Shown piece by piece: positions 18,429 through 28,851 of a stretch of 64,000 bases of DNA. The position numbers and the translations under genes are program-made. This DNA comes from Kiritimatiellia bacterium (GTDB taxonomy: Bacteria > Verrucomicrobiota > Kiritimatiellia > JAAZAB01), in assembly GCA_040767085.1 (NCBI GenBank), contig JAXGPF010000009.1, forward strand, positions 2,307 through 66,306. Reading direction: 5' to 3'. The notes beneath the pieces were generated by a model. That model worked only from the letters and a program-made list of their open reading frames with translations, was not told the origin of the DNA and did not search any database. Numbering within the stretch: the first letter of the stretch is position 1; each line of letters opens with the position of its first letter.

Positions 18429-19580
18429 TCAAGCCGGCTGGTTTTTACGATCTAAAATCCGCGTGACGGCCCGGCGGACCAGGTCCGCTATCCGCAGCAG
18501 CGTTGATTGCCGGAACGCAACGGCATTCACCGGACAGACCTCGCTGCAGCAGCCGCATTCGATGCAGGCGCCCGAATCCAGAACTGGCGGCCCGGCCGCG
18601 GGCAGGGCGATGGCCGGCGCCGGACAGGCGGCGATGCAGCGCCCGCAGCGTATGCAATTGGGAGCAAATGCCGGGCGGTTCCACAACCAGGGCCTTAAAA
18701 GCCGCACCAGGCGCGCGGAAATCAACCGGTGGGCGAAGGTCGCCGGCAGTTCGAATGGCGGCAAAACCGAGGCGCCGTCCAGATCGCCCAAACAAACCGG
18801 AGCGAGCGGCGGAGTCGCCATCAGCAGCGGCGCCAGGCAGGGCAACTTGTCCGGCCGGATGCGCAGGAGACGGCAAAGCGCCAGTTCCAGGGCCGCCCCG
18901 TCATCAGCGGCAGCCAGAAATCCCAGGCGCACCGGCCGGCCGGCGGTCGGACCGTTCCCTTCCATGGCAGTGACGGCGTCGCAAATCGTCAACCCGGGCC
19001 GCACCAGGCCGTACAAATGCGCCATCAAGCCGCCCAGCATGGCCGGAGTGGGAAAGGCCTTGTGCAGGGCGGTTTTCTGGGCGCCGGGCAGCACGCCGAA
19101 GATGTTTTTAACGGGGCCGGTCAAAATCGTCAGCAAATGCGTCTTCAACTTCGGCACATTGACGATCAAGTCCGCTTCCAGCACCGGCCGGGCAATGCTG
19201 AACGGCACGCCCTGGTAGTTAAAAAGGCGGGCGCCGGACTGCTCCAGGTTCAATAAAGGCGTGTGTTCGTCGGCGCACATTGCGGCAAATCCCGTGGCTT
19301 CCCAGACGCGTTCCATTTTATGTGGCGCGGCGGCGCTGTCGGCCACCGCCACGGTATGGCCCTGCCGGCGCAGATGGCGGATAATGGCGCGCACGACTTC
19401 CGGGTGGGTCGTGGCGGCGTGCTCGGGCGGTCGGTCGGTCAGCAGGTTGGGCTTGATCAGCACGCGCCGGCCCCCTCCCGCCAATGCTGCCGGGCGCAGC
19501 GTATCCAGGAGGCGCCCCAGCGCCGCCGCCACCGCCGCCGGCTGGTAGTCCGCGCATCTGGCGAAAGCGACCGCCGTCAT
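18429..19580 (-). CDS. DUF362-like protein with C-terminal 2x[4Fe-4S] ferredoxin domain
   Basis: Two CxxCxxCxxxCP motifs (CIRCGRCIAACP; CIECGCCSEVCP) at the C-terminus. The N-terminal domain resembles DUF362. Confidence 0.55.
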   Translation of the reverse strand: MTAVAFARCADYQPAAVAAALGRLLDTLRPAALAGGGRRVLIKPNLLTDRPPEHAATTHPEVVRAIIRHLRRQGHTVAVADSAAAPHKMERVWEATGFAAMCADEHTPLLNLEQSGARLFNYQGVPFSIARPVLEADLIVNVPKLKTHLLTILTGPVKNIFGVLPGAQKTALHKAFPTPAMLGGLMAHLYGLVRPGLTICDAVTAMEGNGPTAGRPVRLGFLAAADDGAALELALCRLLRIRPDKLPCLAPLLMATPPLAPVCLGDLDGASVLPPFELPATFAHRLISARLVRLLRPWLWNRPAFAPNCIRCGRCIAACPAPAIALPAAGPPVLDSGACIECGCCSEVCPVNAVAFRQSTLLRIADLVRRAVTRILDRKNQPA

Positions 19581-20002
19581 GACATGGCTTCCGGTGGCGG
19601 CGGGCCGCGCCGGGCCAGGGCCACGCGCAGGGGATAACGCAGGCGCAATTCGTTTTCCAGGAGGATTTCCACCCAGTATGCGCCTGGTTCGGGGAAGTTC
19701 AAGTTGACGAAAAACTCCAGGTTGGTCATGGTGGCTTCAATCGAGGGGAGCTTGATGGGAATCTCGCGGCCGGATACGAGGACGGTGGACTGGTCCGGCT
19801 TGACAATCCGCGTTAGCTGCCGGAATTCGCCGTCGCCGCCGCACCAGCGGTTCACCACACAAACCCGGGGAAAGTTCAACGGCAACTGCGGCCCGGAGAT
19901 GAAGTCGAACAGGCCGATCAGGATGAACTTGCCGTTATGTTCCTGGCGCACATCGTCGCAAACCACGCTGAACTGCAAGTCGGGAATTATTTTGGAGTCC
20001 AT
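19577..20002 (-). CDS. hypothetical protein (no recognisable motif), translationally coupled to the DUF362/ferredoxin gene
   Basis: 141-aa ORF. Locally lower GC than flanks. Its stop overlaps the downstream start (ATGA). Confidence 0.4.
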   Translation of the reverse strand: MDSKIIPDLQFSVVCDDVRQEHNGKFILIGLFDFISGPQLPLNFPRVCVVNRWCGGDGEFRQLTRIVKPDQSTVLVSGREIPIKLPSIEATMTNLEFFVNLNFPEPGAYWVEILLENELRLRYPLRVALARRGPPPPEAMS

Positions 20003-20069
20003 GGCATTTTCATTTCCGTAGGTTAACCGTCATGCTGGCGCGCCGGCCGGCGGCAACGGGCGGCCAGTT

Positions 20070-20957
20070 TCACGTTGCCGCGGGCGGGTGCGGCGGCGCG
20101 GCGCCCGTTTGCGAGCAGACATACGCCGCCAGGCGGTTGGCGCGCCGGTTGATTTCCGGCAAGGGCCGGTCATTGAGCCGGCCCATAACCACCGCGGCGG
20201 CAAAAGCATCGCCCGCGCCCACCGTATCCGCCACCGCTACCGGGCAGCCCGGGTGTTCGTCCCGGCGGTGGCGTTCCGCCAGCAGGCTGCCGCGGGCGCC
20301 GCGCGTCAACGCCACCAGCTCCAGCGGATAACGCTCGAACAAAACGCGCAACAGGCCATCCAGGGAGGCGGGCAGGCCGAGCAGGCGCGCCGCGGCGGGC
20401 AACTCCTCATCGCTGATTTTCAGTATGTCGGCCATGCGCAGCGAGGCGTCCAGCACCTCCCGGTCGTAAAAATTTTCGCGTAAATTGATGTCGAACATCC
20501 GCAGACAGCGCGGCGGAACAGCCCGGATAAAACCGTGGATAGCGGCGCGCGCGGCGGGGCGGCGCTGGCCCAGCGTGCCGAAACAAACGGCATCCAGCGC
20601 GCCGGCCGCCTGTTCCAGCGCCGGCGTCAGCCGCCAATAATCCCAGGCCCGGTCCGCGGCGATGGTGTAAACCGGCCGGCCGGCCCCGTCCAGCCGGACC
20701 TCCACGACGCCCGTGGGATGGGCGGGATCCACGCTCACATTCGTATCGTCCAATCCCATGGCCCGGATCGCGGAGCGCAGCGCCTGGCCGTCGTCATCCG
20801 CGCCGACGGCGCTCACAACCATGGAGCGGGCGCCCAGGGCGCCGGCATGGTAAGCGAAATTGGCCGGCGCGCCGCCCGGCTGGCGGCCGCCGGGGAGCAA
20901 GTCCCATAACAGTTCGCCCACGCCGGCAACGCTGAACCTTTTACCAGGGCCATTCAT
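20070..20957 (-). CDS. PfkB-family carbohydrate kinase
   Basis: N-terminal GG motif region (VAGVGELLWDL) and C-terminal anion-hole motif (DTVGAGDAFAAAVV) of the ribokinase/PfkB family. Confidence 0.65.
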   Translation of the reverse strand: MNGPGKRFSVAGVGELLWDLLPGGRQPGGAPANFAYHAGALGARSMVVSAVGADDDGQALRSAIRAMGLDDTNVSVDPAHPTGVVEVRLDGAGRPVYTIAADRAWDYWRLTPALEQAAGALDAVCFGTLGQRRPAARAAIHGFIRAVPPRCLRMFDINLRENFYDREVLDASLRMADILKISDEELPAAARLLGLPASLDGLLRVLFERYPLELVALTRGARGSLLAERHRRDEHPGCPVAVADTVGAGDAFAAAVVMGRLNDRPLPEINRRANRLAAYVCSQTGAAPPHPPAAT

Positions 20958-20960
20958 AAT

Positions 20961-21545
20961 TCACCGGCGCAAAGCCTGGCGGATGATCTCCTCCACCGTG
21001 CCTTCAGCCGGCAGGCGGCCCGCCGCCGCCGCCGCCATTTTCTGCGCATCCGCCGGCTTATATCCCAGAGCCGCCAGCGCCCGCGCGGCATCCTGGACGC
21101 GCTGATCGCCCGGCAGCGCCGCCGCGCCATCAGGCAGGCCGGGATGCTTGATTTTATCGCGCAACTCCACCACCATCCGATCGGCGATTTTACGGCCGAT
21201 GCCGGAAATACTGCTCAAACGGGCGGTATCGCCGGCGGCAATGGCGGAGGACAATTCGGTCGCCGCCAGGCCGCTCAAAGCGCTCATGGCGGTGCGCGGC
21301 CCGATCCCGGTCACTCCCAGCAACAGCCCGAAAAGCCGACGTTCCGCCGGCGTGGCGAAACCGTACAAAAGATGCTGATCCTCGCGGACATAGTCATGCA
21401 CCCAGACGCGGCAGCACTCGCCGGCCGCGGGCAGGCGCGCGTAACTGTTCAGGGAAATAAACACCTCGTAACCGACGCCAGCCAGATCCAGGACCACGCG
21501 CGTGGGCGATTTTTCCGCCAGTGAGCCTTCCAGGAAGTCAATCAT
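20961..21545 (-). CDS. ruvA: Holliday junction DNA helicase RuvA
   Basis: MIDFLEGSL...GVGYEV N-terminus. HhH motifs (GIGPRTA). C-terminal RuvB-binding domain. The ORF extends upstream to 21605, but RuvA homology begins at the ATG at 21545. Confidence 0.85.
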   Translation of the reverse strand: MIDFLEGSLAEKSPTRVVLDLAGVGYEVFISLNSYARLPAAGECCRVWVHDYVREDQHLLYGFATPAERRLFGLLLGVTGIGPRTAMSALSGLAATELSSAIAAGDTARLSSISGIGRKIADRMVVELRDKIKHPGLPDGAAALPGDQRVQDAARALAALGYKPADAQKMAAAAAGRLPAEGTVEEIIRQALRR

Positions 21546-21547
21546 GT

Positions 21548-22075
21548 TCAAATTTCCTTGGGAGCGAGCGCGCCATGAAAGCGCGTGGCGCCATGCAGAT
21601 GGCAAACGGCGATGGCCAGGGCATCCGCGGCGTCTTCCTGCGGCTCATCGCGCAGGCGCAACAGCGCCACGATCATCCGGCGCACCTGATCCTTGTCCGC
21701 GGCGCCATACCCCGTCACCGCCAGCTTGACCCGCCGCGGCGGATACTCGTACACCGGAAGGCCGGCGGCGGCAATGGCAGCCAGCGCCGCTCCGCGCGCC
21801 TGCCCCAGCGCCAGAGCCGTTTTGACGTTTTTACAAAAGAACACGCCTTCAATTGCCACTGCGTCCGGCTCCAAGCGCCGGATGATATCGGCCAGCGATT
21901 GCGACAAGTGCTGCAGGCAGCGTGAGACCGGGCGCGCCGGCGGATTGCGGATCACGCAATATTCAATGGCTTCCAGGATGCTGCCGCGCGCCTGCACCAC
22001 GGCCACGCCGGAAGAGCGCAGCGACGTATCCAATCCCATCACCCGCGGCGCGGGTTGGCGGGCGGGAGCGTTCAT
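21548..22075 (-). CDS. ruvC: crossover junction endodeoxyribonuclease RuvC
   Basis: VMGLDTSLRSSGVAVV N-terminus with catalytic D/E pattern (IEGVFF, DAADALAIA). Confidence 0.85.
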   Translation of the reverse strand: MNAPARQPAPRVMGLDTSLRSSGVAVVQARGSILEAIEYCVIRNPPARPVSRCLQHLSQSLADIIRRLEPDAVAIEGVFFCKNVKTALALGQARGAALAAIAAAGLPVYEYPPRRVKLAVTGYGAADKDQVRRMIVALLRLRDEPQEDAADALAIAVCHLHGATRFHGALAPKEI

Positions 22076-22827
22076 TTCGATTCCAATTCCGCCAGCAACG
22101 CTTCGTCCACGTCCAGGTTGGAATAGACATTCTGGACGTCATCGTTTTCTTCCAGGGCCTCGATGAATTTCATGACATGGCTGGCCACGCTTTTATCGGT
22201 CACGTTCATGTAACTGTCCGGGATCAGCGTGATTTCGGCGGAGGTGGTTTTGATCCCCGCCTTCTCCAGGGCATCCATCACCGCCTGATATTCCGCCGGT
22301 TCGGTGATAACCTCGAACACGCCGCCATCCTGCTGCATGTCTTCCGCGCCGGCTTCCAGCACGATACTCATCAGTTTTTCTTCTTCCACGGCGCCGGCAT
22401 CCACCAGGATCTGGCCCTTGCGTTTAAAATTGCGCATGACCGAGCCCGGCCCGGCCAGGTTGCTGCCGAACCGGGTGAAGATGTGGCGGATTTCCGAGGC
22501 GGCGCGGTTTTTATTGTCGGTCAGGGCCTTGACGATTAAAGCCACGCCCCCGCCCGCATAACCCTCGTAAACGATTTCCTCCAACTGGGCCCCGGCGATT
22601 TCACCGGTCCCTTTCTTGATGGCGCGTTCCACATTGTCGGCCGGCATGTTTGCCGCACGGGCCTTGTTCATAATGGTGCGCAGCGACGGATTCATGTCCG
22701 GATTGCCGCCGCCCGCGCGGGCCGACAGGGTTAATTCCTTGCTCAAGCGGCTGAAAATCTGGCCGCGCTTGGCGTCCGCCGCGCCTTTCTTGTGCTGAAT
22801 GGTTTTCCATTTGCTATGGCCGCTCAT
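22072..22827 (-). CDS. yebC: YebC/PmpR family DNA-binding transcriptional regulator
   Basis: MSGHSKWKTIQHKKGAADAKRGQIFS... canonical YebC N-terminus. Overlaps the ruvC start. Confidence 0.85.
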   Translation of the reverse strand: MSGHSKWKTIQHKKGAADAKRGQIFSRLSKELTLSARAGGGNPDMNPSLRTIMNKARAANMPADNVERAIKKGTGEIAGAQLEEIVYEGYAGGGVALIVKALTDNKNRAASEIRHIFTRFGSNLAGPGSVMRNFKRKGQILVDAGAVEEEKLMSIVLEAGAEDMQQDGGVFEVITEPAEYQAVMDALEKAGIKTTSAEITLIPDSYMNVTDKSVASHVMKFIEALEENDDVQNVYSNLDVDEALLAELESK

Positions 22828-22863
22828 CTGGTCCTCCTGCTGTTACAAGCTCCAACTTCACAA

Positions 22864-23817
22864 TTAAGCAACCGGCGCCGGCAGCAACGCCGCGTCCGGC
22901 AACATGTTATACCCCAGCAATTCCGCCGGGGCGTCCGGGCCGCATTCCTGCTGCCAGCCCAAAGCAAATCCCAGGTCTTCCATGCGCCGGCACACGGCCG
23001 CATATTCCGCCGGCGTCACCCGGCGGTTCCAGCCGGCGCAATGCGCCGCCCGGTACGCCGGCACATATTGCCCCATCAGGCTCACCGCGGTTTCCGGGCC
23101 GAGATTTTCCGCCAACCATTCCAGGCTGGCGCAGGCCTCCTGGGCCCGGCCCGGCAAAACCAGCACGCGGCAAATCAAGCCCGACCTGGCCACGCCCGCG
23201 TCATCCAGACGCAAGGGTCCGGTCTGCCGCCGCATTTCCTGAAGCGCCCGGCGCGCCTGGCGCACGTAATCCGGCGCATCTGAAGCAACCCGGGCCGTGG
23301 CGTCGTCGGCGTAACGCAGGTCGGCCAGGTACACCGCCACAAGGCCTTCCAACTCGCGCAACGTCTCCACCCGCTCGTAGCTGCTGGTATTATACACCAC
23401 CGGCAAATCGCCGCCGGCGGCCCGGGCCCGGGCCAGGGCCGCCATAATCTGCGGCAACCATGGCGTCGGGCTGACCAGGTTCCAGTTATGGCAGCCGGCC
23501 GCCTGCAACTCCAGCAATATCTCCGCCAGCCGGTCCACGCTGCAATCCCGCCCGGCCCCTTCCTGGCTCCATGGGTAATTCTGGCAATAAAGGCACCGCA
23601 GTGTGCAGCGGCTGAAGAAAACCGCGCCGGATCCCCGTGTCCCGGCCAATGGCGGCTCCTCGCCGCAATGCGGTCCGTAACGATAAATCCGCGGCAGGCT
23701 GCCGGCCCCGCAATAACCTTGCGCGCCGTCGGAACGCCGCGCCCGGCAGCGCCGCGGGCACAATTCGCAAGCCGCCGCGCCGAGCAGCGGCGCCATCTCC
23801 GGCCGAACTTCGATCAA
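22864..23817 (-). CDS. radical SAM protein, PflA-like / AmmeMemoRadiSam-type
   Basis: N-terminal Cys-rich segment (CELCPRRC...GYCG). Radical SAM core CX3CX2C followed by QNY (CTLRCLYCQNY). Confidence 0.6.
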   Translation of the reverse strand: MIEVRPEMAPLLGAAACELCPRRCRARRSDGAQGYCGAGSLPRIYRYGPHCGEEPPLAGTRGSGAVFFSRCTLRCLYCQNYPWSQEGAGRDCSVDRLAEILLELQAAGCHNWNLVSPTPWLPQIMAALARARAAGGDLPVVYNTSSYERVETLRELEGLVAVYLADLRYADDATARVASDAPDYVRQARRALQEMRRQTGPLRLDDAGVARSGLICRVLVLPGRAQEACASLEWLAENLGPETAVSLMGQYVPAYRAAHCAGWNRRVTPAEYAAVCRRMEDLGFALGWQQECGPDAPAELLGYNMLPDAALLPAPVA

Positions 23818-25826
23818 TCCTCTGTTTCCTTGGTTTTTTCAGCTTCCGCAATAATTTTCTGGGCGATGTTGGACGGCACGATATCATAACGCGCAAACTG
23901 CATTTCAAACGAACCGCGGCCGCCGGTGATGCTGCGCAACTCGGAACAATAGCGGAATAACTCCACCTGGGGGACATCCGCCGTGATCACCTGGAGCCCA
24001 TCCTGGACGTCCACGCCCAGAATCCGGCCCCGGCGGTGGTTCAAGTCGCCGTTGATATCGCCCATGTACTGGTCCGGCACCATGACCTTGATACTCATGA
24101 CCGGCTCCAGCAGCACGGGTTTCGCCTTGCTCATGGCGTCCTTAAAGGCGCGGGAGGCGGCGATCTTAAACGCGATTTCCGAGGAATCCACATCATGGTA
24201 GGATCCGTCATACACGGTGACCCGCACATTCACCACGGGGCAGCCGGCCAGCGCGCCATGGCGCATGGCCTCCACGAACCCCTTTTCGCAAGCGGGAATG
24301 AAATTGCGCGGAATGACGCCGCCGACCACGGCGTCTTCGAACCATTCCTCGCCTTGGGGCAGGGGCTGGACCTTAGCGTAAACTTCCGCGTATTGACCGC
24401 GGCCGCCGGATTGTTTCTTATGCCGGTAATGCCCGTCGCCGAGGCTGGTAACCGTCTCGCGGTATGACACCTTGGGCACTTTAAACTCCAGATTCAGATT
24501 GCTGCGCTTGCGCACCATTTCGCGCACGAGTTCCAGGTGGGCGTCGCCCATGCCGGACAGGATCATCTCGTTCGTATCGGGGTTGCGCTCCATTTTCAAG
24601 GTGGGATCGTCTTCGATCGCGCGCTGGAGAGCGACGCCGATCTTGTCATCCTCGCCGTCCTTGGCAAACACCGCGTTGAAGACCACCGGATTGCGGAACA
24701 CCACCGGCGCGAACTCGATCTTCCGGCCGGGGGCGCAGAGGCTGTCGTTCAATTGCGTGTTTTTCAACTTCGGTAAAGCGATAATGTCGCCCGCGTGCGC
24801 CTCGCCCACCGGCACCTGCTTCTTGCCGCAGGGCGCAAAAAACGCGCCGATGGTCTCCTTGACGCCCCGGGTGGCGTTATAAATTTCCATACCTTCGCGG
24901 AAAGTGCCGCTGACCACGCGGGCGAAAGCCAGTTTGCCGGCATAAGGGTCTGTCAGGGAACGCCAGACAAAGGCGCTGCATGGGGCTTCCGGGGCGGAAT
25001 CCACCGCCTGGTCCTGGGCGTCTTTGAGAGGGCGGTCCAGCGGGGAGGGAAACAGCCGGGCGATACCGTCCAGCAAATCCGCCACGCCGGCGTCCTTCGG
25101 GGCCGTAGCGGCAAAGACGGGGACCAGGCTGCCGGACGCGACGGCGCCGCGCAAGCCTTTTTCGATTTCGTCCGGCGTCAGTTCTTCGCCGCCCAGGAAT
25201 TTTTCAATCAGCGCATCGTCCGTCTCCGCGGCCTTTTCCAGCAGCGCGTTGCGGGCTTCCGCGGCGGCCGCCGGCAGATCGGGCCTGGCGTCCAGCAAGG
25301 CCACCGGGCGGCCATCCAACCAGGCGGTCACCGGCACACAGGCGCCGCCCCAGACCTCCTGGATTTCCGCCAGGATTTTGGCGTAATCCGCCGATTCGCG
25401 ATCCAGTCCGGTGATCACCACGGCGCGCGGCAGGCCGCGGTTTTCGCATTGCCGCCAGGCGGCGCGGGTGCCGACCTGGATACCGTCCACGGCGTCCACC
25501 GCGATCAACACGGCATCCGCCATATGCAGGGCGCATTGCACCTGGCCGAAAAAATCGTCCGTGCCCGGGGTATCCACAAACATCAATTGCGTTTTCGCGC
25601 CGCGGGGATTCCGGTAAACGGCGCATAAGGGCGTGGCGTAAATACTGGTCTTGCGCGAGATTTCCTCGTCCGTGTAATCGCACATGCTGGTGCCGTTGGC
25701 GGGCGAGCCCTGGCGGTCATTCATGCCCGTTTTGAAAAGCATGGCATCGCACAAGGCGGTTTTGCCGCTGCCGCTGTGGCCCGCAAGCGCGAAATTGCGT
25801 ACATCTTTAACCGCAATATCTTTCAT
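23814..25826 (-). CDS. elongation factor G-like GTPase (EF-G paralog with atypical G1 motif)
   Basis: 670 aa. G-domain (GHSGSGKTAL instead of AHIDAGKT; DTPG; TGLD). EF-G domains II-V recognisable. Its stop overlaps the radical SAM gene start by 4 nt. Confidence 0.7.
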   Translation of the reverse strand: MKDIAVKDVRNFALAGHSGSGKTALCDAMLFKTGMNDRQGSPANGTSMCDYTDEEISRKTSIYATPLCAVYRNPRGAKTQLMFVDTPGTDDFFGQVQCALHMADAVLIAVDAVDGIQVGTRAAWRQCENRGLPRAVVITGLDRESADYAKILAEIQEVWGGACVPVTAWLDGRPVALLDARPDLPAAAAEARNALLEKAAETDDALIEKFLGGEELTPDEIEKGLRGAVASGSLVPVFAATAPKDAGVADLLDGIARLFPSPLDRPLKDAQDQAVDSAPEAPCSAFVWRSLTDPYAGKLAFARVVSGTFREGMEIYNATRGVKETIGAFFAPCGKKQVPVGEAHAGDIIALPKLKNTQLNDSLCAPGRKIEFAPVVFRNPVVFNAVFAKDGEDDKIGVALQRAIEDDPTLKMERNPDTNEMILSGMGDAHLELVREMVRKRSNLNLEFKVPKVSYRETVTSLGDGHYRHKKQSGGRGQYAEVYAKVQPLPQGEEWFEDAVVGGVIPRNFIPACEKGFVEAMRHGALAGCPVVNVRVTVYDGSYHDVDSSEIAFKIAASRAFKDAMSKAKPVLLEPVMSIKVMVPDQYMGDINGDLNHRRGRILGVDVQDGLQVITADVPQVELFRYCSELRSITGGRGSFEMQFARYDIVPSNIAQKIIAEAEKTKETED

Positions 25827-25911
25827 GATCCTCCCTTAATAGACATACCCGCGCGACCCCAAAGCCGCCTTTTGTCATTTATAGCCGAAGCGGCGGGCGA
25901 ATGCAAGACAA

Positions 25912-26844
25912 TCAATCCACCGTCCGGGCGCCGACCTTGTGTTTCCAGATGAGGAAAAAGGCCGCCACCGACGCCGCCGCCAGCCCCACGATCACCCAGA
26001 AGGCCATCGGATGCTGCATGTTCATCGGCATGCTCACATTCATGGAAAAGGCGCTCACGACGAAAGTCGGCACCATGATGCCGATGGTAATGATATTGAG
26101 GGTTTTCATCAGGACGTTCAGGTTGTTGTTGACGATGGACACGCGCGCATCCATCATGCTGGCCAGAATGGTCGAATAGATCTCCGCCAGGCGATAACAC
26201 TGGTTGTTCTCGATGAAAATGTCTTCCAGCAATTCCAGGTCCCGGTCCGTCATCCCCAGCTTGGCGGCGTTGTACTTCCACCGGTCAATCAGGGATGAGT
26301 TGGAATTGATGGCGCTGAGGTAATACACCAGGCTTTTTTCGAGGGTAAACAAGTTCAACAGGTACTTGTTTTCCATGGCGGTGCTGATTTTCTGCTCCAG
26401 GGAATCGGCAATCATGTTGATCACCTTCAGGTGTTCCACATAATGCTGAATCGTGCGATAAACCAGCCGCAGCGCCAGGTCCAGGAGGGAATTCACCCGG
26501 TTAAACAACTTGCCGCTGAACAGTTGAATGTCGTCGGACAGCAGCACGACCAGGCGTTCCTGGAAGAGAAACACGCCGACCGATCCCACTTTGAACAGGA
26601 ACTGGTCCCGGGAAGAATAATTCTTCGGGCGCTTGAAGATCATGGCCACATGGTCTTCCTCGAATTCCAGGCGCGACAATTCGTCGGGGTCGAGGGCGGA
26701 ATTCATGGTGTGCTCGTCCAGTTTGTATGTGCCGAGCAGCAGCTTGCGTTCGGCATCGTCCGGCGCGATGAACACCAGGATGTTGCCGGGCTGGTCGCCG
26801 CTTTCCTGCAAGCGCCCGTCCCGCAGTAAATATTGCTTTAACAT
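25912..26844 (-). CDS. corA: CorA-family divalent cation transporter (variant GMN motif SMN)
   Basis: Two C-terminal TM helices with an (A)FSMNVSMP loop motif. Cytoplasmic N-terminal domain. Visibly lower GC than neighbours. Confidence 0.6.
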   Translation of the reverse strand: MLKQYLLRDGRLQESGDQPGNILVFIAPDDAERKLLLGTYKLDEHTMNSALDPDELSRLEFEEDHVAMIFKRPKNYSSRDQFLFKVGSVGVFLFQERLVVLLSDDIQLFSGKLFNRVNSLLDLALRLVYRTIQHYVEHLKVINMIADSLEQKISTAMENKYLLNLFTLEKSLVYYLSAINSNSSLIDRWKYNAAKLGMTDRDLELLEDIFIENNQCYRLAEIYSTILASMMDARVSIVNNNLNVLMKTLNIITIGIMVPTFVVSAFSMNVSMPMNMQHPMAFWVIVGLAAASVAAFFLIWKHKVGARTVD

Positions 26845-26854
26845 AAACGTAAAA

Positions 26855-26876
26855 CTTTCAAAACGTGAGTTTTGAA
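26855..26876 (-). promoter_or_regulatory. 9-bp inverted repeat TTTCAAAAC-GTGA-GTTTTGAAA in the corA leader / divergent promoter region
   Basis: Perfect palindrome located 11-32 nt upstream of the corA start, in the AT-richer 250-nt gap shared with the divergent GT39 gene. Confidence 0.3.
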
Positions 26877-27096
26877 AAATTTAACGCAAAACCAGCGTCA
26901 AAAGCAAAGCCGGCGTCTCCGGCTATGCAACAGGCCACTATATAACGATTTTGCTGCCGCTCGTCAAGCGGCATTTTACCCACCCAGCCTGTGTCATTCC
27001 CGGCTGCCCGCCCGGCTCGTCCGCCGTAGTCTTGCGCTCAAATCGAAGGCACAGCATATTTTTCGTGCATCGCGCCGCGGAATCATTTAAATTGAC

Positions 27097-28851
27097 TTGT
27101 TTCGATTCGGAACAGGATTATTGCCGCCGCCAACAGGAAGGTTCAGGATGGACGCTGTTTCGCCTTTGTCGCACCCACTGGCGCGCGGCGCCGCGCTGGC
27201 GCTGGCCGCGGCGCTGCTGGTCATGCTCTTCGGCCGCGGCTTGATGGACCCCGACGAGGGGCGCTACGCCGAAATCCCGCGCGAGATGGCGGTGTCGGGC
27301 AACTGGATGGAAATGCGCCTGTTGGGATTCCGGTATTATGAAAAGCCCCCCCTGGCCTACTGGCTGACCGCCCCGGCAATCCTGGCCTGCGGCGCCCGCG
27401 ACTGGGCGGTGCGGATTCCGCTGGCGCTCAACCTTGCCGGCATGGCCTGGCTGTTTTACCGGTTGATGCGCCGGGAATGGCCGGCCGACTCCAGCCGTTG
27501 GACACTGCTCATCGGTTCCGCATCCCTGGGCTTTACCGCCGGCTTCACGCTCCTGATGACCGATCCGTTCCTGGCGCTGTTTTTTAGTTTGACCTGCTAC
27601 TGGGCGTACCTATGGTTTGAGACACCGCCGCCAGCCGCGGGACGGCGCGCCCGGCTGGCCGTCGCCGCCGGCGCCGCCGCCGCGCTGGGTTTCCTGACCA
27701 AGGGCGCCGTGGCGGCGGTACTGCCCGGCGCCATCATCCTGATCTGGGCGGCATGGGAACGCCGGCTGCGCCAGCTGCGCTTTTCGCTGTTGGCCTGGGC
27801 CGGCGTGATTTTCCTGGCCATCGCCGGCAGCGCCCTGCTCCTGATCGAGCGGCACAACCCGGGCTTTTTCCTGCATTTTATCTGGAATGAACATATCGCC
27901 CGCTTTACCGGCACCCGCGAATTGCAGGGCCATCCGGAGCCGTTCTGGTATTTCGGCTATATCATACCGCTGCTGCTGGCGCCGTGGACGCTGTTCCTGG
28001 CGCGCGCGGCCAGGATGATGGCGGCGCGGCGCGCGCTTCAGACCGACCGTCTGACGCGCCTGCTGCTGGTCTGGGCTGGCGTCGTGGTGTTCTTTTTTTC
28101 CGCCAGCACGGGCAAACTGATGTCCTACATCCTGCCGGCCATCTTTCCCATCCTGATCCTGCTGGGCCGCTGGGGGATCGCTGAACCGTTCGACGGCACA
28201 GAGGCCGACCGCCGCTTGATCCGGTGGGGAACCGCCGGAACGCTGCTCATCATGGCGGCTTTGATCCTGGCCTGGGCGGCCAGTTACACGGACATCTTCC
28301 CGGACAAACTACAGCCGGTCCGCGGCGCCAGCATCCTGGCCTTACTGCCGCTGGCTGCCTGTGGTTGGCCGGCTCTGCGCTGCTGGCGCGCCGGCAGCGA
28401 CTTCCGTCCGCCCGTGGCGCTATTGAACGCCGGCATTCTCCTGACCGCGGCCTTGATGCTGACCCCGCTTCCCGGCCGCTGTTTCAACGTTACCGCCCGC
28501 AAAAACTCGGCCATCGTCTACCAGGCCCTGGCCGGCCGCCTGACGCCGGCGGACCGCCTGGTCTCGTTATGGTCCTACCGTCCTTCGCTGGCTTTTTATA
28601 CCGGGCGGATTTACCGGCCGTACCAAAGCCGGAACGAACTGCTGTTCGGCATGCGCATGGAGCCGGGCCGTCCGGCCGATATGCAGCATCCGGATGAAAT
28701 CCGCGCTTTGGCCGCCGGCACCCCGGGCCGGGTGTACGCCCTGGTTGAGCCGGATGATTACGTCAAGCGGTTGCCGGAACTAGGGCTTAAATTCCAGGCA
28801 ACGGATTTGCCGTGCGATCCCAGGACCATCATCCTGGAAGTTGTGCCGTGA
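27097..28851 (+). CDS. glycosyltransferase family 39/83 protein (ArnT/PMT-like)
   Basis: Periplasmic-loop DE motif (MDPDEGRYAEI...YYEKPPLAYWL) after TM1. About 11 TM helices. An alternative start at 27148 is possible. Confidence 0.65.
   Translation: MFRFGTGLLPPPTGRFRMDAVSPLSHPLARGAALALAAALLVMLFGRGLMDPDEGRYAEIPREMAVSGNWMEMRLLGFRYYEKPPLAYWLTAPAILACGARDWAVRIPLALNLAGMAWLFYRLMRREWPADSSRWTLLIGSASLGFTAGFTLLMTDPFLALFFSLTCYWAYLWFETPPPAAGRRARLAVAAGAAAALGFLTKGAVAAVLPGAIILIWAAWERRLRQLRFSLLAWAGVIFLAIAGSALLLIERHNPGFFLHFIWNEHIARFTGTRELQGHPEPFWYFGYIIPLLLAPWTLFLARAARMMAARRALQTDRLTRLLLVWAGVVVFFFSASTGKLMSYILPAIFPILILLGRWGIAEPFDGTEADRRLIRWGTAGTLLIMAALILAWAASYTDIFPDKLQPVRGASILALLPLAACGWPALRCWRAGSDFRPPVALLNAGILLTAALMLTPLPGRCFNVTARKNSAIVYQALAGRLTPADRLVSLWSYRPSLAFYTGRIYRPYQSRNELLFGMRMEPGRPADMQHPDEIRALAAGTPGRVYALVEPDDYVKRLPELGLKFQATDLPCDPRTIILEVVP

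Follow-up and report, generated by a model that had tools for sequence, protein, structure and literature searches.

Does a divergent EF-G paralog that is encoded next to a radical SAM enzyme in an uncultured Kiritimatiellia bacterium work together with that enzyme, or is their proximity a matter of inherited gene order? The two genes lie within a stretch of 64,000 nt on contig JAXGPF010000009.1 (from here: the window). A sequence-only reading had suggested a ribosome-associated GTPase functionally paired with a radical SAM enzyme. The genes, motifs and neighbours that it described were all recovered, but an ATGA junction and an AmmeMemoRadiSam label were not. The locus (from here: EFG2 for the EF-G paralog and rSAM for the radical SAM gene and its product) is a co-directional string in the order corA-like, EFG2, rSAM, yebC, ruvC and ruvA:

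25912..26844, minus strand: gene for a CorA-like Mg2+ transporter, on the same strand and 85 nt 5′ of EFG2
23814..25826, minus strand: EFG2, EFG II-type EF-G paralog, 670 aa (ORF and Pfam domains)
23814..23817, minus strand: gene junction TTGA, the TGA stop of EFG2 plus a possible TTG start of rSAM (sequence)
22864..23817, minus strand: rSAM, PflX-like radical SAM gene, 317 aa from TTG 23817 or 310 aa from ATG 23796
22072..22827, minus strand: yebC (TACO1/YebC family; Pfam PF01709 and PF20772), starting 36 nt past the rSAM gene
21548..22075, minus strand: ruvC, with a 4-nt overlap with the yebC stop
20961..21605, minus strand: ruvA, ORF listed from an upstream TTG, RuvA_N domain from residue 21

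The string yebC-ruvC-ruvA(B) is a common arrangement in many bacteria. The window resembles it in that ruvC and ruvA come immediately after yebC, while the Kiritimatiellia version differs by the upstream addition of EFG2, of a PflX-like rSAM, or of both. Genes for AMMECR1 or MEMO1 do not adjoin the pair, in agreement with the sequence-only reading. No Rfam family was matched at E ≤ 1 within positions 22500-26200. In a scan of 19500-27300, promoters and terminators were about as frequent as in shuffled sequence (5 where 2.1 were expected, and 9 where 9.4 were expected), and an operon boundary could not be taken from it.

The overlap of stop and start codon had been read as ATGA. The letters at the junction are ...GAG GAT TGA TCG..., where a TTG (23817-23815) overlaps the TGA stop of EFG2 (23816-23814), and the first ATG of rSAM (23796-23794) lies 17 nt past that stop. 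Homology of rSAM to four relatives of the same genus begins only at residues 9-11, which favours the ATG as the start and hence an arrangement of the two genes without overlap. Their tight spacing is kept in the genus of the window but is not conserved beyond it. Contigs from RNA libraries of two studies span the junction, which is consistent with co-transcription, although DNA carry-over is possible and the coverage consists of short contigs over 23531-23860 only, of 5.4 kb compared. The RNA-covered 330-nt piece folds no better than shuffled sequences (z -0.61). EFG2 and the rSAM gene probably share one transcript.

EFG2 possesses the five domains of EF-G proteins (Pfam GTP_EFTU, EF-G_D2, EFG_III, EFG_IV and EFG_C), and two motifs of its GTPase domain are of particular relevance:

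25752..25781, minus strand: P-loop (G1) GHSGSGKTAL, residues 16-25, Gly first and Leu last (ORF and alignments)
25560..25574, minus strand: G3 motif DTPGT, residues 85-89, Thr where the catalytic His is expected (alignments)

Both the length of the protein and the letters of the P-loop had been reported correctly. The P-loop had also been called altered, yet it is an ordinary Walker A motif that corresponds to the signature published for the EFG II subfamily. According to the accessible part of Margus et al. (2011; PMC3150367), this signature is GhxxxGKT.L, with Gly in the first position instead of the Ala of EFG I and Leu in the last instead of Gly; the trGTPase G2 consensus RGITI is relaxed with retention of Ser/Thr at the fourth position; EFG II proteins form a tree branch separate from EFG I; and another EF-G is always present in the genome. 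As far as that part of the source goes, EFG2 resembles EFG II in its GH.GSGKT.L, the Ser at the fourth position of its relaxed G2 motif, the non-His residue after DxPG, the conserved domain IV, the separate branch and the companion EF-G in the genome. The P-loop signature is kept across the 20 PVC orthologs fetched, with the exception of a Phe as the last residue in one of them (L119). The G2 motif is RKTSI (residues 58-62) in EFG2 and RK[ITS][ST][IV]-like in the orthologs, compared with RGITI in the canonical EF-Gs of the same genome. DTPG is retained in G3, followed by Tyr in most orthologs and by Thr in the genus of the window. The G4 motif NKxD, which like DxPG in G3 is listed as kept in EFG II but is a general GTPase motif and not specific for the subfamily, is replaced by TGLD; most of the PVC orthologs shown read [TN][GRA][LI]D. 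The EF-G2 of B. thetaiotaomicron also lacks the G4 Lys (NQLD), which is a precedent for TGLD. The tip loops of domain IV, HKKQSGGRGQY and YDGSYHDVDSSE, are conserved.

Among solved structures, the best matches to the G-domain of EFG2 were T. thermophilus EF-G-2 (1wdt, E 1.8e-31), followed by M. smegmatis EF-G2 (9K0Z/9K10) and B. thetaiotaomicron EF-G2 (7UVP/8DMF, named TetQ in the deposition), the latter two at just 96-100 bits. The G-domain alignment with 1wdt, 9k0z and 7uvp places another residue at the position of the catalytic His in all of them, Tyr in M. smegmatis and Ser in B. thetaiotaomicron compared to Thr in EFG2. The EFG II protein T. thermophilus EF-G-2 (1WDT/2DY1) shares the five domains and the length of about 665-670 aa with EFG2, and 1wdt aligns over the full length. 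Differences are the G4 motif (TGLD, not TKLD), the Thr instead of Tyr at the catalytic-His position in the genus of the window, and residues 200-400, which are closer to canonical EF-G structures (7cdw, E 9e-35) than to 1wdt (5e-16). In the available portion of a recent preprint (bioRxiv 10.64898/2026.05.25.727771), the M. smegmatis protein, with its Tyr for the catalytic His, is described as a stress-specific factor and the B. thetaiotaomicron protein as a slow translocase.

The phylogeny points in the same direction. In a quick maximum-likelihood tree (IQ-TREE) of 32 rows from few genomes, with SH-aLRT supports only and without named references among the rows, the 6 EF-Gs with canonical motifs (AHIDAGKT or SHIDAGKT plus DTPGH) were split from 26 paralogs lacking the catalytic His (SH-aLRT 100). 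The 21 PVC EFG2 rows formed one clade (SH-aLRT 100), a PVC-specific group. EFG2 scored 766.7 against the broad NCBIfam model NF009381 and stayed below the cut-offs of both EF-G2 models (533.9 versus 890 for NF009377, 531.5 versus 1000 for NF058620).

The sequence-only reading had separated EFG2 from the housekeeping fusA, and the genome bears this out. It encodes two further EF-Gs above the TIGR00484 cut-off of 659.4 (968.5 and 875.4 bits), both with the P-loop AHIDAGKTTV, and one of them is located in the str operon (rpsL-rpsG-fusA-rpsJ-rplC-rplD). EFG2 does not qualify as a canonical EF-G by its TIGR00484 score of 528.7, by its DTPGT motif or by its location between the corA-like gene and rSAM. 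Routine translocation and recycling would be handled by the two canonical-type EF-Gs. From the signature positions, the solved G-domain matches, the split in the tree and the extra EF-Gs of the genome we assign EFG2 to the EFG II subfamily already described in 2011 (the available part of PMC3150367), an assignment that is based on motifs and on a quick tree of few rows, none of them a named reference. Judged by its motifs, the GTPase centre is degenerate (G...L P-loop, RKTSI, Thr for the catalytic His, TGLD). By analogy with the characterised EF-G2 proteins, EFG2 probably binds the factor site of the ribosome and would be slow or stress-specific, and ribosomes would stimulate its GTP hydrolysis hardly or not at all.

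The product of the second gene matches the Pfam family Radical_SAM (PF04055; 34.7 bits versus a cut-off of 29.5), and alignments located the two Cys motifs that had been noticed before:

23710..23769, minus strand: four-Cys N-terminal motif C17-x2-C20-x3-C24-x11-C36, the same in all 49 family members aligned
23584..23607, minus strand: radical SAM cluster motif C71-x3-C75-x2-C78, then Q79, N80 and Y (alignment)

The 49 diverse PflX-like proteins aligned, including that of the window, are about 300 aa long and share as invariant elements the N-terminal Cys residues, HxGEEP and GSG..FF..C-x3-C-x2-C-QN. The four-Cys N-terminus may bind an auxiliary Fe-S cluster. Homologues are numerous (5013 cluster representatives at E ≤ 1e-3, 889 at E ≤ 1e-30). 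The JGI annotation reads 'putative pyruvate formate lyase activating enzyme', and we take COG1313/K04070 to be the label of this PflX-like 'putative PFL activating enzyme' family. A search against NCBIfam returned no family at E ≤ 0.001, matches in the ESM Atlas were only to unnamed radical SAM clusters, and a published function for the PflX-like family was not found in the literature searched. The AlphaFold model (pLDDT 92.6) had its top Foldseek matches in the pyruvate formate lyase activating enzyme (PFL-AE) of E. coli (3c8f, 3cb8 and 8fo0; E 4e-10 to 1e-9, TMt 0.70-0.75). Thus, rSAM belongs to a widespread, uncharacterised PflX-like family with a predicted PFL-AE-like fold.

Of the earlier label AmmeMemoRadiSam/PflA-like, only the second half stands, in that the nearest solved fold is a PFL activase. 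AmmeMemoRadiSam enzymes are likewise PFL-AE-like radical SAM proteins, and TIGR04337 members carry a Cys-containing N-terminus. However, rSAM did not match TIGR04337 at E ≤ 0.001, and it neighbours EFG2 and yebC instead of AMMECR1 or MEMO genes. The two TIGR04337 genes of this genome (394 and 313 bits) are both on another contig (C24).

The database name implies that rSAM activates a glycyl-radical enzyme. This is consistent with E. coli PflA (3C8F, 3CB8, 8FO0) being its closest structural match, with the shared CX3CX2C core and with a weak local sequence match to PFL-AE, the only one found among solved structures (E 0.1, over 35 residues around the cluster motif). However, the identity between the two is just 14%, and the invariant four-Cys N-terminal segment as well as a C-terminal extension are additions that PFL-AE does not have. 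Moreover, a search of the 95%-complete genome for PFL-like, Gly_radical and NRDD domains (PF02901, PF01228, PF13597) gave 0 matches each, while the same profiles matched in 3, 3 and 6 of 14 named control genomes, respectively. As no glycyl-radical enzyme was found, it is unlikely that rSAM activates one in this genome, and we give the interpretation implied by the name hardly any credence.

Is rSAM then functionally tied to EFG2? The adjacency is not a peculiarity of one genome. EFG2 and rSAM are neighbours in 24 of 24 relatives of the same family and in three other Kiritimatiellia families (f5, f27, f29), down to 53% identity for EFG2 and 47% for rSAM, which is more than random gene-order drift would usually keep across four families. 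An enzyme dedicated to EFG2, modifying it post-translationally, would agree with this conservation, with the tight junction within the genus and with the PFL-AE-like fold, which suggests a protein substrate. Dph2, the enzyme that initiates diphthamide formation on EF-2 in archaea and eukaryotes, offers an analogy. Outside the Kiritimatiellia, the pairing was found in none of the other classes or phyla searched.

To judge the wider picture, a sample of 50 Kiritimatiellia genomes was used, with rSAM clade members defined by at least 50% identity and EFG2 by E ≤ 1e-135, and with absences judged in MAGs by single-protein queries. The order EFG2-rSAM-yebC occurred in 5 genomes, EFG2 directly followed by yebC in 15, EFG2-x-yebC in 3 and rSAM-yebC without EFG2 in 9. 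Among the 20 genomes possessing the rSAM clade, 14 have it on yebC, 9 contain EFG2 (in 5 of them adjoining rSAM) and 11 lack EFG2. In the 15 genomes with EFG2 directly on yebC, the own rSAM copy, where found, is located elsewhere and is just 33-48% identical. The domain IV tip and the other conserved motifs of EFG2 are the same in rSAM-linked and unlinked orthologs. Across phyla, 80 rSAM loci were compared: yebC is downstream in 8 (all PVC-labelled or unlabelled) and EFG2 upstream in 3, whereas none of the remaining 72 has a same-strand EF-G or yebC neighbour (71 of these are titled as other phyla or 'bacterium' and one as Verrucomicrobiota). Any one neighbour family was common to at most 5 loci. 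The rSAM family is hence widespread in phyla in which the EF-G neighbour is absent. These distributions weaken the functional pairing proposed from the sequence; they give no support to a system dedicated to EF-G2 and rSAM, and we regard an enzyme specialised in modifying EFG2 as quite improbable.

The common anchor of the gene string is yebC. Of the 35 class genomes that carry EFG2, 23 have it adjacent or close to yebC, and the linked rSAMs all belong to one clade of 35 rows (SH-aLRT 100), 31 of which have a same-strand yebC within 400 nt. YebC-family proteins relieve polyproline stalling as translation factors, as reported in the accessible parts of PMC12234827, PMC11990639, PMC11381339 and PMC13602936. 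One could therefore imagine a translation module centred on yebC, in which EFG2, rSAM and YebC act jointly on difficult or stalled translation and the target of rSAM would be YebC, a tRNA, or a component of the ribosome close to its peptidyl-transferase centre. These adjacencies and the reported role of YebC speak for such a module. Against it, the arrangement is limited to one class plus a single genome (G043) of another: in the phylum sample beyond the class, EFG2-yebC adjacency was seen in 1 of 50 and rSAM-yebC in 0 of 25 cases. The single clade of all linked rSAMs fits a single origin. In other genomes, the place between EFG2 and yebC is taken by pcm or by unidentified ORFs (pcm, without evident link to either gene, in 1 of the 3 EFG2-x-yebC cases). 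Tight linkage to yebC is also seen for ruvC, and to our knowledge the two have no common function, which makes adjacency a weak predictor. Finally, the available part of PMC13602936 names neither a radical SAM nor an EF-G2 partner (0 occurrences). On balance, the yebC-centred module appears doubtful and is a weak lead; its more specific form for the Kiritimatiellia, with the PflX-like rSAM modifying YebC, EF-G2 or rRNA/tRNA and with EF-G2 and YebC cooperating on slow or stalled ribosomes, would be somewhat more doubtful still.

The explanation that we prefer, and consider likely, is that an EFG II-type EFG2 and a PflX-like rSAM are neighbours through an inherited, lineage-specific operon architecture and not as a dedicated pair. 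In the Kiritimatiellia, EFG2 and one rSAM clade would each tend to occupy the position upstream of yebC, and a few families with both genes there would show the order seen in the window. The EFG2-rSAM-yebC string may nevertheless not be functionally neutral, since EFG2, like YebC, is a ribosome factor.

As it stands, the EFG2/rSAM pair represents an ordinary lineage-specific gene order of small significance, and the analysis puts right three misreadings that come easily: that the P-loop is 'abnormal', that rSAM is an AmmeMemoRadiSam enzyme, and that the two genes form a coupled pair. The occurrence of EF-G2 directly on yebC in many Kiritimatiellia, together with the recent recognition of YebC as a translation factor, makes a tie between EF-G2 and YebC testable. 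The PflX-like family is large, annotated and uncharacterised, and one of its clades is fixed beside yebC. If the yebC-anchored module were true, it would provide a first function for the PflX-like family and would connect EF-G2 to polyproline rescue.

The EFG II-type EF-G paralog EFG2 and the neighbouring radical SAM protein rSAM are encoded in a string of six consecutive same-strand genes, delimited by open reading frames and domain calls:

25912..26844, minus strand, corA-like gene
23814..25826, minus strand, EFG2 (670 aa)
22864..23817, minus strand, rSAM (317 aa)
22072..22827, minus strand, yebC
21548..22075, minus strand, ruvC
20961..21605, minus strand, ruvA

Downstream of a pfkB-family kinase gene, on the strand of the ruvA end, lie genes for two further proteins (18429-20002): one of DUF362 that carries a 4Fe-4S ferredoxin domain, and one of DUF6941. 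An ATGA overlap between the EFG2 stop and the rSAM start had been proposed. The junction reads GAG GAT TGA TCG, hence the overlap is TTGA, with TTG as the rSAM start. The first ATG of rSAM is found at 23796, 17 nt past the EFG2 stop; homology to four same-genus relatives starts at residues 9-11, and this onset favours the ATG as the probable start. The two genes are closely packed whichever start codon is used. In other genera of the family, 16-198 nt separate the end of the EFG2 match from the start of the rSAM match, so close coupling is not a conserved trait.

Within 21500-26900, short RNA-library contigs (four runs from two studies) cover 23531-23860 alone, a stretch made up of the final 45 nt of EFG2 and the first 285 nt of rSAM. 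Three of them run across the junction, reaching 31 nt or more to either side and showing no more than one difference to the window; they are compatible with co-transcription, while such contigs cannot prove one transcript and DNA may occur in the libraries. The covered 330 nt matched nothing in Rfam, and their fold was unremarkable.

The pairing is not unique to this genome. EFG2 and rSAM are adjacent in 24 of 24 relatives of the same family, with yebC next in 21, usually together with ruvC; yebC was not seen in the other three, in two of which the locus ends too early to show it. Among the 16 genomes of other families in this initial sample, rSAM was matched in eight and adjoined EFG2 in one. 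Fifty evenly sampled Kiritimatiellia genomes, among them that of the window, gave the following picture.

Gene orders in the class sample (genomes, n = 50)
EFG2-rSAM-yebC: 5
EFG2-yebC, directly adjacent: 15
EFG2-x-yebC, gap of 0.9-1.3 kb without this rSAM: 3
rSAM-yebC, no EFG2 beside: 9

One of the three gaps holds a protein-L-isoaspartate O-methyltransferase (PCMT) gene between EFG2 and yebC (L137:248-922, G125:C34, a genome of family f16); the other two, in further f16 genomes, hold ORFs without a known Pfam family. In the direct arrangements EFG2 lies upstream of yebC at 25-137 nt (e.g. G084:C25:170980-173799, G096:C37:22409-25230), and any rSAM copy elsewhere in such genomes is just 33-48% identical. 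An rSAM at least 50% identical to that of the window was present in 20 genomes of the class sample and lay on yebC in 14 of these; nine carried EFG2 anywhere, adjoining rSAM in five, and 11 had no EFG2 at E<=1e-135. That rSAM is a dedicated modifier of EF-G2 is poorly supported and appears improbable.

Outside the class but within the phylum, EFG2 adjoined yebC in one of 50 genomes carrying EFG2, and rSAM adjoined yebC in none of 25. Of 80 rSAM loci taken from a range of phyla, eight had yebC downstream and three had EFG2 upstream, and in the other 72 neither gene stood beside rSAM on the same strand. All eight yebC-linked records are titled Verrucomicrobiota, Kiritimatiellia, Lentisphaeraceae, Akkermansia or 'uncultured bacterium' (titles as given); the EFG2 of one 'Akkermansia' MAG is 54% identical, a class-like value. 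In one Bacillota locus an EF-G-like gene lies 1.6 kb off on the opposite strand. Among the 76 analysable loci, a neighbour family is shared by five at most, and the recurrent ones are unrelated housekeeping genes. Beyond the PVC group, a single neighbour of unknown function recurred: a DUF4416 gene, directly upstream of rSAM on the same strand in four Omnitrophota loci (L064:4396-4941, L061, L074, L076). A quick tree built from 109 rSAMs placed all linked copies within one 35-row clade (SH-aLRT 100, branch 0.78).

The EFG2-rSAM pairing is real and predates the genus; it arose once and is restricted to part of one class. Both genes are common without each other, and the constant element is yebC. 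For these reasons we consider the adjacency to be probably a lineage-specific operon architecture rather than a two-gene system. A translation module centred on yebC is the main rival, and a rather unlikely one. Its appeal is that recent work describes proteins of the YebC family as factors in the translation of proline-rich stretches (accessible parts of PMC12234827, PMC11990639, PMC11381339 and PMC13602936), whereas the yebC-ruvC precedent and the varying content of the slot between EFG2 and yebC speak against it. The direct adjacency in 15 of 50 class genomes points to a possible functional link between EF-G2 and YebC.

The family of rSAM is very large, with 5013 representatives at E<=1e-3 and 889 at E<=1e-30; we take it to be the one labelled PflX, COG1313 and K04070. 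The protein carries the motifs C17-x2-C20-x3-C24-x11-C36 and C71-x3-C75-x2-C78-QNY; neither Cys motif varies across 49 diverse members, nor do H50, E53, E54 and Q79-N80. The confident AlphaFold model (pLDDT 92.6) has E. coli PFL-AE as its nearest solved neighbour (TMt 0.70-0.75, 14% identity), with lipoyl synthases next. The suggested AmmeMemoRadiSam-like label did not hold, as rSAM matched no NCBIfam family and TIGR04337 identified two different genes in the genome, true radical SAM genes of the AmmeMemoRadiSam type, both on contig C24 (242590-243585 and 19612-20589; 394 and 313 bits), the former with one in-frame TAG. At JGI this family goes by the name 'putative pyruvate formate lyase activating enzyme'. 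Searches of the 95%-complete genome for PFL-like, Gly_radical and NrdD genes gave no hit, so the activase name is unsupported here, and a role as glycyl-radical-enzyme activase is poorly supported and highly improbable. A literature search found no published function for the PflX-like family.

EFG2 contains all five EF-G domains and, as noticed in the sequence-only reading, the P-loop GHSGSGKTAL (residues 16-25). It scored 528.7 with TIGR00484 (cut-off 659.4) and passed only the broad NF009381 among NCBIfam EF-G models, as do the canonical copies of the genome. In the accessible text of Margus et al. (PMC3150367), EFG II is characterized by Gly and Leu at the first and last P-loop positions, loss of RGITI with Ser retained at position four, conservation of domain IV and another EF-G in the same genome; EFG2 shows all of these listed features. 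G4 is TGLD instead of NKxD, and the position after DTPG holds Thr (Tyr in most orthologs), with no catalytic His. The best three solved G-domain matches, T. thermophilus EF-G-2 (1wdt), 9k0z and 7uvp, align Tyr, Tyr and Ser there. According to the available portion of a preprint (bioRxiv 10.64898/2026.05.25.727771), M. smegmatis EF-G2 (9K10), with Tyr for this His, is without ribosome-dependent GTPase activity, and the GTPase of EF-G1 is almost lost on an H88Y change; the same text assigns B. thetaiotaomicron EF-G2 to slow translocation and credits T. thermophilus EF-G2 with GTPase and translocation activity. Residues 200-400 of EFG2 are matched better by canonical EF-G structures than by solved EF-G2s, which counts against a simple reading. 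A quick ML tree (32 rows, no named reference sequences) split six canonical-motif EF-Gs, two of them the further copies of this genome, from all 26 paralogs without the catalytic His (SH-aLRT 100), a group that includes paralogs of Geobacter, Desulfobacterales, Thermoanaerobacterium, Lachnospiraceae and one actinobacterial MAG; the 21 PVC EFG2 rows formed one clade (SH-aLRT 100).

The genome is a MAG, and proteins of its relatives bear Kiritimatiellia or Lentisphaerota names. It holds two more EF-G genes above the TIGR00484 cut-off:

contig C5:20636-22693 (locus L002:1420-3564), canonical-motif EF-G
contig C25:342789-344837 (locus L001:1480-3759), canonical-motif EF-G

One lies in the str operon (rpsL-rpsG-fusA-rpsJ-rplC-rplD; 875 bits), confirming that EFG2 is not the housekeeping fusA; the other adjoins eno (968 bits). 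Altogether, the sequence-only reading was partly confirmed in its observations, the P-loop and the pairing standing and the ATGA overlap and enzyme label falling, and its interpretation was partly supported, though not as to a functional pair. The domain IV tip of the str-operon copy is degenerate (VFDREIGGKRQF; LDAGFDPHDS), and this copy groups with similarly degenerate Geobacter and Desulfobacterales copies; the eno-adjacent copy retains canonical domain IV loops. A split spdEFG1/spdEFG2 arrangement has been described for Spirochaetes, Planctomycetes and deltaproteobacteria. The two canonical-motif EF-Gs look like such a split, in which the str operon would hold the recycling-type copy. If this holds, the bacterium would possess three functionally distinct EF-Gs.
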